Origin: a bacterium | GTDB taxonomy: Bacteria; UBA8248 | Direction: 5' to 3' | Assembly (NCBI GenBank): GCA_965207065.1 | Contig: OZ242260.1 | Span: 4,128,001-4,192,000, forward strand | Length of the DNA stretch: 64,000 nucleotides | Shown here: piece after piece, positions 10,478 through 15,441 of the stretch | Layout: each line of letters opens with the position of its first letter | Position numbering within the stretch: the first letter of the stretch is position 1 | Notes under the pieces: model-generated | Databases searched by the model: none | What the model saw: only the letters and a program-made list of their open reading frames with translations | What the model was told of the DNA's origin: nothing | Program-made: the position numbers and the translations under genes

Positions 10478-10626
10478 AGTCAAACCTGATGTCTCTGGTA
10501 AATAGATACGCCTTAATCTTTGCGGCCACATGATGCGTATTATTCGGCGCCGAACGTTGAAAATTATCGCATTGCGATTTGTATTGTTTTCATCAGCTGG
10601 AGAAGAAGAGAATAGGAGAAAAGAAC

Positions 10627-12318
10627 ATGACGGAGCAGAAAACAGTCCTGAACCGATTTAGCCGGCGCATTACCCAGCCACCCTCGCAGGCCGCCTCTCA
10701 GGCTATGCTCTACGGTGCGGGTCTGGATGAAATCGACATGAAAAACCCCCAGATCGGTATCGCCAGCATGTGGTGGGAGGGAAATTCCTGCAATTTTCAC
10801 CTCAATCGGCTTGCCGAATACATCAAGCAAAGCGTGAACGCCGAGAAAAAAATGGTCGGACTCATTTTCAATACGATCGGAGTGAGCGACGGAATCTCAA
10901 TGGGCACGGAGGGTATGAAATACTCTTTGCAGTCTCGAGATCTCATTGCCGATTCGATCGAGACCGTCGTCGGCGCGCAATGGTATGACGCTCTGGTTAC
11001 ATTGCCCGGATGCGACAAGAACATGCCCGGCTCCATCATGGCCATGGCGCGGCTCAACCGGCCCAGCCTGATGGTTTATGGCGGCACCATCAGCCCTGGG
11101 TTTCTGAATGGAGACAAGCTGGACGTGGTCTCCGCCTTTCAAGCCTACGGCGAATACTTCTCAGATAAAATCGACGAAGAACGTTTCCAGTCGGTCATCC
11201 GGCATGCCTGCCCGAGTGGCGGTGCCTGCGGGGGCATGTACACGGCGAACACGATGTCCTCATCCATCGAAACGCTAGGCATGAGCCTGCCCTACAGTTC
11301 ATCGAATCCCGCCATGAGCGAGGACAAGAAAAACGAGTGTCTCGACGTGGGAAAAGCCATTTATCACCTGCTCGAAAACGACATCAAGCCCAGCGATATC
11401 ATGACAAGAGAAGCATTCGAGAATGCGATCACCATCATCATGGCGCTCGGCGGCTCGACGAACGCCGTCCTCCATTACATCGCCATCGCCAAGGCTGTCG
11501 GGGTCGAATTCACGATCGACGATTTTCAGGAAATCAGCGACAGGACGCCATATGTCGCGGATTTGAAGCCCAGTGGACAATTCGTCATGGAAGACCTACA
11601 CGACGTCGGCGGCGTACCGGCCGTCCAAAAACTTCTCTTGAAAGAAGGCCTGCTTCACGGTGATTGCCTCACCGTCACGGGCAAGACGCTCGGCGAGAAT
11701 ATCGAAGCCCTGCCCGACCTCCTTTCCGGCCAGAAGATCATCGTGCCGCTTGCCACCCCTATCAAGAAAACGGGACACCTCCAGATTCTCTACGGGAACC
11801 TCGCGAGTGAGGGCGCTGTCGCCAAGATTACAGGTAAAGAAGGCGAGCGCTACGAGGGCCCTGCGCGCTGCTTCGATTCCGAGGAAGACGCTCTCAAAGG
11901 ACTGGAAGAAAACAGAATTCAAAAGGGAGACGTCGTCATCATCCGCTACGAAGGACCCAAGGGCGGCCCCGGAATGCGGGAGATGCTGACGGTTACGTCC
12001 GCAATCATGGGAGCCGGACTCGGGAACGACTTGGCCCTCATCACGGACGGCAGATTCTCAGGTGGCACGCATGGTTTCGTCGTCGGACACGTCACGCCCG
12101 AAGCCCAAACCGGTGGTCTGCTAGCTCTCATTGAAGACGACGATATTGTTTTGATTGACGCCCAGAACCGCGTCATGGAGCTTAAGTTGCCCGAGGAAGA
12201 GATAAAGCGGCGACGGCAGAACTGGAATGCACCCCCGATAAAATTCACGAAAGGTACACTCTACAAGTACGCCAAGTGCGTATCTTCCGCGTCGGAAGGA
12301 TGCGTGACGGACGAGTAG
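10627..12318 (+). CDS. ilvD: Dihydroxy-acid dehydratase
   Basis: [42 protein letters not shown] and TDGRFSGG motifs. Confidence 0.95.
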
Positions 12319-12326
12319 GCACAGAC

Positions 12327-12365
12327 CCCAAAAAGAGGGGAGTCGTTTTCTCCCCTTTTTTTGGG
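12327..12365. terminator. Likely bidirectional intrinsic terminator
   Basis: CCCAAAAAGAGGGGAG-7nt-CTCCCCTTTTTTTGGG inverted repeat between convergent genes. Confidence 0.7.
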
Positions 12366-12377
12366 ATGCAATGCCGT

Positions 12378-12842
12378 CTACGACCCGCCGCTGTTCTTAC
12401 TCCGGTTGGCGAATTCCTTAAAATACCCTCCGATGGAGGAAGCAGCCCAGTCAAAACCAATCTCCTGGGCTTTTTGCAGCACCTCGTCTCCGCTCAAGTC
12501 TTCTTCTTCGGCCAGATGAACAAGCGAGCAAATCCCGGCTCGCCCAACTCCTTTTCAGTGAACGTATACCGGACCGTCTTTCCTGGCCTCACGGAGCGCT
12601 TCATGGATTTGTCCCGATAAGGCATCATTCATGTTTGCGGCATTCACGGGAATATTCACAAAGTTCATTCCTAACTCTTGGGCCGCCTCTCGTTCCGCAT
12701 CGGGCGGCAACTCCGGTTCTTCCTCATCGGCGAAACGCAAATTGACGAGGGTTTTCATCCCATTATCCGCCAGATGCTCCAGATCCTTCCGTCCTGGCTG
12801 GCTTCCGAACACCAGATTTTCTGCCAACTCAAAGTAGTCCAT
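12378..12842 (-). CDS. Putative selenoprotein of DUF442/Blh-like (phosphatase-fold sulfurtransferase) family, Sec96 from TGA 12555-12557
   Basis: GSQP...GMKTLVNLR...ELGMNFVNIPV...GPVYVH-TGA-KGVGRAG; frame stays open 58 more codons to TAG 12378; U-X4-R matches the family C-X4-R loop. Confidence 0.8.
12524..12543 (-). promoter_or_regulatory. SECIS-like hairpin
   Basis: GCGAGC-CGGGATTT-GCTCGC begins 11 nt after the in-frame UGA. Confidence 0.6.
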
Positions 12843-12865
12843 ACCTTTTTCCCTCAACAATATAG

Positions 12866-13708
12866 TTAGATTCGTTGCACCAGTTCCCGACAACGAAGCA
12901 GGCAGGTCGCTTTTTCATCTTCTTCGTCGCGCTTATAAATTCCAAGCAGATTGTTGATCATTCTCTCCACGATACGGCGAGGAGGGGTTTCCTGTAAAAA
13001 CCGCATATCGAAATGATACCCGAGGCTCCGCACAATCGCCGCGCAATCCCCTACGCTCAAGCGCTTCCCCCTGTCGAATGGATCCAAAAATATGGGTTGC
13101 TCATCACCTTGGTATTTCACGATAAAATGTCCCGGCATTCCAACTCCGTGAAAGGGAAGCCCCAATCGAGCGGCAAGAATCAAATACAATGCGGAAAGCG
13201 ATATGGGGATTCCGAGCCTGCGCGCCAAAACGCGATTCATGAAACTGTTCTGCGCATCATAATAATTATCCCGCTCGCCATCGAAACGAAGCTCCCCGTG
13301 TAGATACTCCACGAATTCGTCGACAATGGCGTCGGCTTTAGTTATCCCCTTCAATCGCCTCCGCAAATGATTTTCCATGCTGAGTAGTTCGTCTTTTTTC
13401 ATCTCCATGTTTTCAAGCGGATGGCCGAAAGACGCCAGCAAGAAGCACGCGTCTTCCAAATTCACATCTTCCACCGAAGAAAGAGACCAATCCGAAAAAG
13501 CAGTTTCGATTTGCCCGTAATGGAATTCAATGAGCGATGGCGGCAGTATCACATGACCCGCATCACTTTTTTTCAGTATGCCCAGGAGTCTTTTTTGCTC
13601 ATCGGCCGAGAATTCCGAAACCTGGCGGTCCAAAGCTTCCGTCACGCCCGGTGAATCATCACCCAGCAAATGACAAATGGCCTCTAATTGCGAATCACTT
13701 AATGACAA
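12866..13708 (-). CDS. SirB1/transglutaminase-like domain protein
   Basis: NYYDAQNSFMNRVLARRLGIPISLS, GVGMPGHF and FLDPF motifs. Confidence 0.85.
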   Translation of the reverse strand: MSLSDSQLEAICHLLGDDSPGVTEALDRQVSEFSADEQKRLLGILKKSDAGHVILPPSLIEFHYGQIETAFSDWSLSSVEDVNLEDACFLLASFGHPLENMEMKKDELLSMENHLRRRLKGITKADAIVDEFVEYLHGELRFDGERDNYYDAQNSFMNRVLARRLGIPISLSALYLILAARLGLPFHGVGMPGHFIVKYQGDEQPIFLDPFDRGKRLSVGDCAAIVRSLGYHFDMRFLQETPPRRIVERMINNLLGIYKRDEEDEKATCLLRCRELVQRI

Positions 13709-13815
13709 AATAGCGTCCTTAGATTGAGCAATTGTCTCTCACCCTACCCATGCCTTTGAATTATGGTATTATCATTCGAACTTATCCACAATTCGCGCTC
13801 GACGGGAGTAATCGC

Positions 13816-15441
13816 ATGTCCACGTATGCCGATGTGGTGGCGGAGGTTCTTCTAGATGCGGGTATCGAATTCATTTTCGGTGTTCCTGGAAGTTTAAGTT
13901 CCGTCGAACTTATTGAGGCTGCGAGAAAGCGGAACATTCGCTACATCCTTTGCAGCAACGAGAGCAGTGCGGCCGTGAAGGCGGGCACGTACGGCATCAT
14001 GACGGGACGACCGGGAGTCGTGAGTACGGGCGTCGGGCCGGGGGCGGCTGCCGTCCTCCACGGCGTGGCGAACAATTATCTCGAACGCGCACCCTGCCTC
14101 ATTTTGACCGACCGTTTTTCAGATGAGCAGTTCCACCGTGAGGGTCGGCAAAAACTCGACCAGGATCGGTTGCTGCGCCCTATCACGAAAGCCACCATCA
14201 AGCTCGCAAAAGACAACGCCGCGGTAGCCATCAGGCGCGCACTGGCCTTGACCGTAGAGGGAAGGCCTGGTCCCGTGCATGTAGACCTTCCCTACGACGT
14301 CATGCTGGCGAGCGCTGAAGAAAACGATTTCCCCCCTAAGGAAGCCCCACAAAAATTTATCCGCCGCACCGGCTCGGCTCACCCTGGCATCGTCACAACT
14401 CTCGACGCAATCTCGGAGTCGAAAAACCCGATAGTGATAGCAGGCCTTCAGATAAACCGCTCGGGAAGAGAAGCAGAAAAGGAATTCGTATCTTTCACCG
14501 AAAAACTCGGAGCGCCCGTACTCGCCGCACCGTCAGCTAAGGGCATTTTGCCGGAAAACCATCCTCTCGCCATGGGCACCTTCCGGGGCGCACCCTCTGA
14601 GCGAGAATTGATAGACAAGTCGGACCTGTTCATTCTGGTGGGCTTCGACACGGTGGAAGTGTTCGCCCCCGGAAATTGGGAATATCCCCAGAAAGTGATC
14701 AATTTGGATGAAGTGCCGCATCTCGATGATTTAATTCGGCCGGAAATAGAAGTCGTCGCTCATCTCGCCGATATTCTTAGAGAGTTGAGCGCCTCCGTCA
14801 CCTCCAACCATGTCTGGAACACAGAGGAGATGGACTCCTATAAGAAAATGAGGCAATCCGCCTTGTTCCCCACCGGAGAAGGCTTGATGCCCGGCGCCGT
14901 CATTCGGATTGCGCGGGAATGCCTCCCCGACAACGGCATCATGACTGCTGATGCGGGAAGCCATAAAGTACTCGCCAACGACATATGGGAGACGAGGCGC
15001 CCTCTGGGTTATCTGACCTCCAGCGGGCTGGGTTCGATGGCTGTTGCAACGCCAGCCGCCATGGCCGCCAAATTAACCGAGCCGGGCACGCCTGTTGTCT
15101 GCCTCACCGGCGATGGAGGTTTTCTCATGCGGATTGGCGACATGGAAGTCGCCGTTCGAGAAAATATCCCATTCGTCACCGTCGTATTCAACGACCGCTA
15201 CCTGAACCTGATCAAAATCAAGCAGGACAACCGATCTTTCCCGCGCCTTGGCACCGAGTTCCGCGATACCGACTATTCATCCGTGGCGAAAGGACTGGGT
15301 TGTGAGGGCGAGAGAGTTACTTCTGAAGAAGAGTTGAAAGATGCACTAAAGCGCGCATTTTCATCCGATAAACCCTGGGTCATCGACGCCGTCATCAATC
15401 CCGACGGTTATGTAGCTGTAAAAGACGTACGCGCGGAATAA
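13816..15441 (+). CDS. Thiamine pyrophosphate-binding protein (acetolactate synthase large subunit-like)
   Basis: FIFGVPG, GRPGPVHVDLPYD and GDGGFLM...FND TPP motif. Confidence 0.9.
   Translation: MSTYADVVAEVLLDAGIEFIFGVPGSLSSVELIEAARKRNIRYILCSNESSAAVKAGTYGIMTGRPGVVSTGVGPGAAAVLHGVANNYLERAPCLILTDRFSDEQFHREGRQKLDQDRLLRPITKATIKLAKDNAAVAIRRALALTVEGRPGPVHVDLPYDVMLASAEENDFPPKEAPQKFIRRTGSAHPGIVTTLDAISESKNPIVIAGLQINRSGREAEKEFVSFTEKLGAPVLAAPSAKGILPENHPLAMGTFRGAPSERELIDKSDLFILVGFDTVEVFAPGNWEYPQKVINLDEVPHLDDLIRPEIEVVAHLADILRELSASVTSNHVWNTEEMDSYKKMRQSALFPTGEGLMPGAVIRIARECLPDNGIMTADAGSHKVLANDIWETRRPLGYLTSSGLGSMAVATPAAMAAKLTEPGTPVVCLTGDGGFLMRIGDMEVAVRENIPFVTVVFNDRYLNLIKIKQDNRSFPRLGTEFRDTDYSSVAKGLGCEGERVTSEEELKDALKRAFSSDKPWVIDAVINPDGYVAVKDVRAE

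Follow-up and report, generated by a model that had tools for sequence, protein, structure and literature searches.

A predicted selenocysteine-containing relative of the DUF442 phosphatase-fold sulfur transferases in a UBA8248 bacterium

Does a short bacterial gene end at its TGA codon, or is this codon read as selenocysteine (Sec) in the middle of a longer protein? The question is raised by a stretch of DNA of 64,000 nucleotides, here called the window, that comes from a bacterium of the UBA8248 lineage (assembly GCA_965207065.1, contig OZ242260.1, positions 4,128,001 to 4,192,000); unless stated otherwise, coordinates are those of the window. On its minus strand, a table-11 open reading frame at 12555..12893 has ...GPVYVH as its last residues and then meets a TGA. 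The initial annotation of the window proposed a hidden selenoprotein at this place.

The reading frame and its in-frame UGA

When TGA is translated as U, the gene begins with an ATG at 12842 and forms a coding sequence of 154 amino acids (12381..12842, minus strand), with a TAG at 12380-12378 just outside it. A Shine-Dalgarno-like GAGGG, seen on direct reading of the sequence, lies 8 nt 5' of the ATG (12851..12855, minus strand). The predicted Sec codon is the in-frame UGA of codon 96 (12555..12557, minus strand), a position at which homologues have TGA and relatives have Cys, and the reading around it is ...D-G-P-V-Y-V-H95-U96-K-G-V-G-R101-A-G-I-C105-S-L.... Residues H95 to R101 make up a P-loop of the form H-U-X4-R (12540..12560, minus strand), which is recognized from its conserved residues and its C-X4-R spacing. 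Nine residues past the Sec is Cys105 (codon 12528..12530, minus strand), which is invariant in 57/57 Sec forms. The frame holds 58 codons past U96, among them LSGDEVLQKAQEIGFD. At this level the initial annotation stands: the coordinates and letters of the frame that ends in ...GPVYVH at the TGA hold, re-translation agrees with its readthrough of H-U-K-G-V-G-R-A-G plus 58 codons in a 154-residue product with Sec at 96, and the shared terminator that it described was found by a terminator scan on both strands, as a bidirectional terminator-like hairpin (12336..12356) shared with the convergent ilvD gene.

The codon is far from being a peculiarity of one genome. A six-frame search of the genomes of the window's phylum found matches in 35 of 51, all within a single family; in this family, leaving out the window's own genome, 34 of 41 genomes matched, and in the other three families of the phylum none did at E up to 1e-5 (0/9 genomes). 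The matches to relatives are full-length with one in-frame TGA, and an in-frame TGA is present in every match listed. Extraction from the phylum genomes yielded 58 places, comprising 57 intact genes and one decayed copy, and in all 57 intact homologues the TGA is codon 96. Such agreement is more than chance would give, and it disposes of the concern, raised at the outset, that the TGA might be private to this assembly. U96 and R101 are invariant among these genes, and H95 is found in 56 of the 57. A word-indexed search among 5.8 billion proteins returned 27 matches, almost all of 84-95 aa; the public gene calls of the homologues are cut at the codon-96 TGA, and one of them is named as a sulfur transferase domain-containing protein.

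Two of the extracted places stand apart. At L034 (G023:C5, gene 1567-1959 and beyond), a second in-frame TGA occurs in place of the TGG of an invariant Trp132, and the conserved reading goes on past it; this second TGA could reflect an error in the assembly, a recent nonsense mutation or another site of recoding. L074 (G024:C10:131044-132119), which lies between Transglut_core2 and ilvD genes, is a remnant of the gene that has decayed and carries an early TAA. The genome concerned retains another copy, linked to an OsmC-like gene, and L074 provides a picture of what a dead copy looks like.

The sequence past the TGA has the character of coding DNA. An alignment of 28 of the 57 sequences, which are 37-89% identical to the window's protein, has seven invariant positions past the UGA, namely R101, A102, G103, C105, S106, L107 and W132. 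In 20 genes of the window's locus from the genus of the window's genome (g1), the dN/dS ratio by the Nei-Gojobori method is 0.11 for codons 2-95 and 0.22 for codons 97-147, and in 22 genes of a second locus, described below, it is 0.17 and 0.18 for the same two segments. L034 was omitted from the genus-g1 set, and gene pairs whose dS was saturated were excluded (leaving, for instance, 180/190 pairs). To judge from these ratios and the invariant residues, purifying selection is acting on the sequence past the TGA, and the lack of downstream conservation that the initial annotation named as a danger to its own reading is not what is observed.

The RNA around the codon is constrained as well. A predicted SECIS hairpin (12523..12544, minus strand), identified from its pairing and frozen codons, has a 7-bp stem (GGCGAGC/GCUCGCU) and an 8-nt, G-rich loop, CGGGAUUU. 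Counted from the U of the UGA, stem columns 14-20 pair with columns 29-35, and the hairpin starts 10-11 nt past the UGA, where the initial annotation had placed a GC hairpin 11 nt on. Both this spacing and the richness of the apical loop in G conform to the rules for bacterial SECIS elements. All seven pairs of the stem are standard in 57/57 sequences. The sole frequent change in the stem is one-sided and affects one pair, which is A-U in 22 sequences and G-U in 35. Double compensatory changes are absent from the stem among the 57 sequences, and the evidence for the hairpin is therefore one of invariance and not of covariation. This invariance extends to synonymous sites: a single codon is used in 57/57 sequences for each of Ala102 (GCC), Gly103 (GGG), Cys105 (TGC) and Ser106 (TCG), whereas invariant residues elsewhere in the protein use two to six codons each (four for Gly13, six for Leu45). 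The dS of codons 100-107 is 0.16 in the genus-g1 set and 0.05 in the second-locus set, compared to 1.16 and 0.58, respectively, upstream. This constraint at the RNA level is common to lineages that are only about 43% identical in protein, and the freezing of synonymous sites is what a SECIS would give. Rfam gave no match to the hairpin at E up to 1. The fold of the 91 nt around the UGA has a z-score of -0.44, shuffled sequences folding equally well, so that only the local hairpin and the codon freeze are informative.

Used as a DNA pattern, the TGA together with the hairpin was found at 54 places in 185,579 species genomes. In 52 of the 54 the genome is a metagenome-assembled genome (MAG) titled Nitrospinota, Nitrospinaceae, Candidatus Tectomicrobia or only "bacterium". 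The two other places, in Microbacterium and Xanthobacteraceae, were rejected as chance matches, the protein being absent from them.

A UGA can be decoded as Sec only where the machinery exists, a point on which the initial annotation had made its case depend. The window's genome, a single contig of 4.48 Mb, contains selA (517 bits), an adjoining selB (386 bits) and selD (334 bits), all above curated cut-offs, the last with an in-frame TGA of its own, and ARAGORN finds a tRNA-SeC with the anticodon tca. The plainest alternative is that translation really ends at the TGA and that the gene encodes a 95-aa fragment or is dead. It has on its side that every public gene call ends at the TGA (84-95 aa) and that the real stop of some relatives is a TGA. 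A product of 95 residues, however, would end short of the nucleophile and the Arg and be without three helices of the modeled fold, and termination is at odds with a downstream dN/dS of 0.18-0.22, with a codon common to 57/57 genes and with the frozen synonymous sites of the hairpin; the sole decayed copy seen, L074 with its early TAA, looks quite different. We therefore hold termination to be very improbable. A slimmer chance still attaches to the idea that a standard residue, be it Trp, Gly or Cys, is inserted at the UGA, either through a changed code or through near-cognate suppression. The conservation, which shows readthrough as such, agrees with this idea, but TGA serves as the stop of many genes here, 12 of the 57 homologues among them, which means that the codon is not generally reassigned; the full Sec machinery is present; and the position is occupied by Cys in 134 of the best 150 profile hits described below. 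The UGA of codon 96 is thus very probably decoded as Sec, and the gene is predicted to encode a real selenoprotein.

Family, fold and cysteine-containing relatives

The protein belongs by sequence and by predicted structure to the DUF442 branch of the phosphatase fold, in line with the DUF442/Blh-like assignment of the initial annotation. It scores 31.2 bits with the Pfam family BLH_phosphatase/DUF442 (PF04273; cut-off 26.1), covering profile positions 4-99 of 110. Three DSP-PTPase families of Pfam reach scores at least as high: PTP-NADK with 39.9 bits, Tc-R-P with 34.1 bits and PTP-SAK with 33.3 bits, each against a cut-off of 27. The NCBIfam Blh model NF040641 matches residues 6-135 at E 1.3e-17 over model positions 3-130 of 423; the score of 63.8 bits is below this two-domain model's cut-off of 625, and there is no ETHE1 domain in the 154-aa protein. 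With TIGR01244 the score is 47.1 bits, below a cut-off of 85.85. These two models were the only ones returned in the comparison with NCBIfam, a check that the initial annotation had suggested, and none of the NCBIfam selenoprotein models matched at E up to 0.1. No Pfam match to a Rhodanese domain was found in the 154-aa protein. An AlphaFold2 model built with the family alignment (pLDDT 93.6, pTM 0.89) has a strand at 92-95, then the P-loop and then a helix at 100-113. In a Foldseek search of the PDB, ranks 1-3 are taken by the DUF442 structures 2f46 and 3gxh/3gxg, and true phosphatases come after them. The TGA aligns with the Cys of the H-C-X4-R loop in DUF442/BLH_phosphatase relatives, as the initial annotation had said of the family's catalytic Cys.

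A profile of 28 sequences was compared with 1.84 billion representative proteins, giving 7,733 hits at E up to 0.001, of which 1,359 are at E up to 1e-10. The pairs of Cys and TGA that the initial annotation had advised looking for are plentiful: among the best 150 of the 7,733 hits, the column opposite Sec96 holds Cys in 134, Ser in seven, Asp in two and Gly in one, and is absent from six, these six being truncated gene calls of 94-112 aa. The preceding His is found in 147 of the best 150 and the Arg of C-X4-R in 139. A Cys at position 105 is seen in only seven of the best 150, as opposed to 57/57 Sec forms. Metagenome Cys homologues, including P0029, P0033 and P0037 and the fused P0031 and P0034, match the profile over its full length (E 6e-56 to 1e-30) and have Cys at the Sec position; unlike the Sec forms, they mostly have no Cys at 105. 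Of the full-length hits, P0029 (E 6e-56) is the closest; its sequence, VFVH-C-KAIGRAGVCS, keeps G-R-A-G-V-C-S and with it Cys105. An atlas look-up of P0029 led to clusters named BLH_phosphatase and TIGR01244 sulfur transferase, and a scan of metagenome DNA with P0029 gave only two distant loci, of 33-34% identity.

A quick maximum-likelihood tree was made that combines 56 Sec forms with 58 Cys hits of the stand-alone kind (proteins of 140-165 aa among P0029-P0110); L034 and L074 were left out, and the tree has a midpoint root only. In it, a single clade (SH-aLRT 99), set among the Cys forms, holds all Sec forms together with P0029, which branches inside it. This grouping is consistent with Sec having been acquired once and with a single reversion to Cys, in P0029. 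Some Cys relatives are parts of larger proteins: P0034 consists of a metallo-beta-lactamase domain, two rhodanese domains and a DUF442-like domain, P0031 of two rhodanese domains and a DUF442-like domain, and P0072 and P0167 of a metallo-beta-lactamase and a DUF442-like domain. Such fusions recall Blh, a bifunctional sulfur transferase/dioxygenase.

Genomic settings and RNA-seq contigs

Upstream of the selenoprotein gene is a gene of 280 aa with a Transglut_core2 domain (PF13369; 12866..13708, minus strand; Pfam E 8.8e-42), the stop of which is 23 nt 5' of the selenoprotein ATG. This neighbor is kept: the Transglut_core2/ilvD setting recurs at all 20 other genus-g1 genes of the window's locus and also in other genera that carry the gene, and the Transglut_core2 gene is likely to be an operon partner. 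On either side of this unrelated two-gene insert are branched-chain amino-acid genes, namely ilvD (10579-12318, plus strand), convergent with the selenoprotein gene, and a thiamine diphosphate (TPP) enzyme gene of the acetolactate-synthase type (13732-15441, plus strand).

Genus g1 has the gene at a second locus too; in the window's genome this second Sec copy, of 150 aa and 44% identical, has the same hairpin (C1:1354407-1354859, or L075:5407-5859; plus strand). The gene 22 nt before it is OsmC-like and has an in-frame TGA of its own, in the context GFULLT (G000:C1:1353755-1354384, or L075:4755-5384; plus strand); we take this OsmC-like gene to be of a known selenoprotein type. It has a hairpin with a GGUA loop past its UGA, and with the second copy it makes up a pair of selenoprotein genes. 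By tblastn, an OsmC-like neighbor stands beside 23 second-locus homologues. Upstream of this OsmC-like/DUF442 pair, at L075:2539-4169 (plus strand), are two adjacent genes of the metallo-beta-lactamase fold, with weak ODP and Lactamase_B hits, and a gene of the glyoxalase fold.

Public RNA-seq data touch the window's locus. Contigs from two runs, belonging to two studies, cover 12365-12607 and so run across the UGA, with the TGA unchanged and two differences nearby. A third study contributes contigs from two of its runs; these span 12689-13000 and with it the junction between the selenoprotein gene and its upstream neighbor. Contigs from the RNA libraries end at 12365-12367, near the terminator-like hairpin. 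These contigs are assembled and of low depth, DNA carry-over being possible and the gap between them uninformative, and they give a weak hint of transcription across the UGA and the upstream junction and as far as the terminator.

Proposed function, novelty and known systems

The reading that we favor, and regard as moderately probable as a whole, is that of a UGA-encoded selenoprotein of the DUF442 type, with an H-U-X4-R loop that passes on sulfane sulfur. In this scheme SelB would read the hairpin as a SECIS and the UGA of codon 96 would be decoded as Sec. The H-U-X4-R loop would then accept sulfane sulfur, or selenium, and pass it on via an enzyme-Se-S intermediate, with the invariant Cys105 perhaps resolving the Se-S adduct, and the selenoprotein would work together with the upstream transglutaminase-like protein. 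We infer that Cys105 is kept as a resolving cysteine, by the constraint on the RNA, or by both. With thiosulfate as the donor, the DUF442 domain of Blh has been found to pass sulfur to cyanide or to glutathione in vitro (PMC5823870), and it is because of this activity, and of the fusion of Cys relatives to sulfur-enzyme domains, that a sulfur-transfer reading is put forward. Sec-containing rhodaneses, which are listed in Table 1 of a 2026 review (PMC13188914), make Sec-dependent sulfur transfer plausible. By analogy with these systems, assignment as a Sec-dependent transferase of sulfane sulfur, and possibly of selenium, has somewhat better than even chances. Beside the window's gene there are no sulfur-oxidation genes.

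The fold does not by itself fix the chemistry, since NMA1982, the DUF442 protein of structure 2f46, reportedly has a weak phosphatase activity. One rival reading keeps the selenoprotein real but makes it a phosphatase or arsenate-type reductase, the P-loop of which works on a phospho- or arseno-ester in the manner of classical PTP/DSP or LMW-PTP-type enzymes. The cut-offs of PTP-NADK, Tc-R-P and PTP-SAK are all passed, Foldseek lists many true phosphatases at TM 0.7-0.75 (Tk-PTP, TpbA and VHR), and the second invariant Cys, C105, resembles those of the thiol cascades through which arsenate reductases work. On the other hand, the C-X4-R loop is one residue short of the C-X5-R of TpbA and RPTP sigma, and in the 28-sequence alignment no acidic residue is invariant in the segment that probably corresponds to the general-acid region of the DSPs, between the strand at 60-63 and the helix at 73-89 or, more narrowly, at positions 64-75. 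The nearest solved structures and the nearest fused relatives are, moreover, of DUF442 and sulfur-enzyme types, and we consider a phosphatase or arsenate reductase unlikely. A mainly redox role, in which a Sec96-Cys105 selenenylsulfide cycle reduces peroxide, a disulfide or the OsmC-like partner, would fit the presence of C105 in all 57 Sec forms and in P0029 as against its scarcity in the best 150 hits, as well as the OsmC-like selenoprotein gene that precedes the second copy and is a neighbor of 23 second-locus homologues. Yet the TGC of C105 is part of the hairpin's 3' arm and could be preserved by constraint on the RNA alone, and the window's own copy is without a redox neighbor; this role, too, has only a small probability. 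Sulfane-sulfur transfer by the H-U-X4-R loop thus remains our preferred reading.

The suggestion in the initial annotation that the protein is not among the commonly listed bacterial selenoprotein families is borne out by Table 1 of the 2026 review, where the family is absent from the 119 families and subfamilies (PMC13188914); the BSepDB database may still list it. Six PTP and DUF442 Pfam accessions are likewise absent from that review. A full-text search of the literature found nothing that pairs selenoprotein with DUF442 or selenocysteine with TIGR01244, and the deep-Sep paper makes no mention of phosphatase, sulfurtransferase or DUF442. The GOS paper mentions phosphatase 26 times, in connection with a PP2C fusion that is unrelated to the present family. 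The lineage itself is known as rich in selenoproteins, as Table 2 of BSepDB gives 54 selenoprotein genes for a MAG that shares its isolate name with one of the homologue loci. The protein is thus apparently a Sec variant of the DUF442/phosphatase-fold sulfur transferase family that is uncatalogued, in a fold that is new for Sec. A bolder statement, which we put just on the probable side of even, is that it is the founding member of an uncatalogued family and the first case of Sec in a P-loop of the PTP superfamily, with a single origin in a selenoprotein-rich lineage labeled Nitrospinota and duplication there, that its partners at the two loci are, respectively, a transglutaminase-like protein and an OsmC-like selenoprotein, and that it operates an Se-S relay with Cys105.

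Most characterized selenoproteins have thioredoxin-like folds, according to the 2026 review (PMC13188914), and the present protein would add a family outside them, one more among more than a hundred selenoprotein families. A natural Sec/Cys pair in a P-loop of the PTP superfamily would allow a test of what selenium gains in persulfide, perselenide or phosphoryl transfer. The family also corrects a systematic annotation error, the public gene calls seen all being cut to 84-95 aa, and it offers a way into the sulfur and selenium metabolism of a lineage that is uncultured and rich in selenoproteins.

Among known systems, the DUF442 structures come closest. In HMMER alignments, the C-X4-R of 2f46 (YCRTGTR) and 3gxg (HCLANYR) is spaced as in the Sec family, an N-x-R-x3-E region is shared with that family, and the Sec protein resembles them too in standing alone at around 150 aa. 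The nucleophile in DUF442 and Blh proteins is Cys, whereas it is predicted to be Sec in the present family, and 2f46 has C-S-L directly after the Arg, where the Sec family has three extra residues (A-G-I) before C105-S-L. Blh, as found in Xylella and Agrobacterium, is further distinguished by a fused ETHE1 domain, which the present protein lacks. The classical PTPs and DSPs, such as TpbA (4r0s), Tk-PTP (5z5a) and VHR (1vhr), share the same alpha/beta fold, with the nucleophile N-terminal to the helix that follows the central strand, but they are only 15-21% identical to the Sec protein by Foldseek, and the HMMER alignments show the loops of TpbA and RPTP sigma to be longer than that of the Sec family by the one residue mentioned above. 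Finally, forms 1-5 of the rhodanese-like selenoproteins (PF00581, NF041203 and NF045694) are described in Table 1 of the review as having Sec in place of the persulfide-carrying Cys (PMC13188914), but they belong to another fold and another family, and they have the motifs UxxS, UxxG or CxU, whereas the motif of the present family is H-U-X4-R-A-G-x-C.
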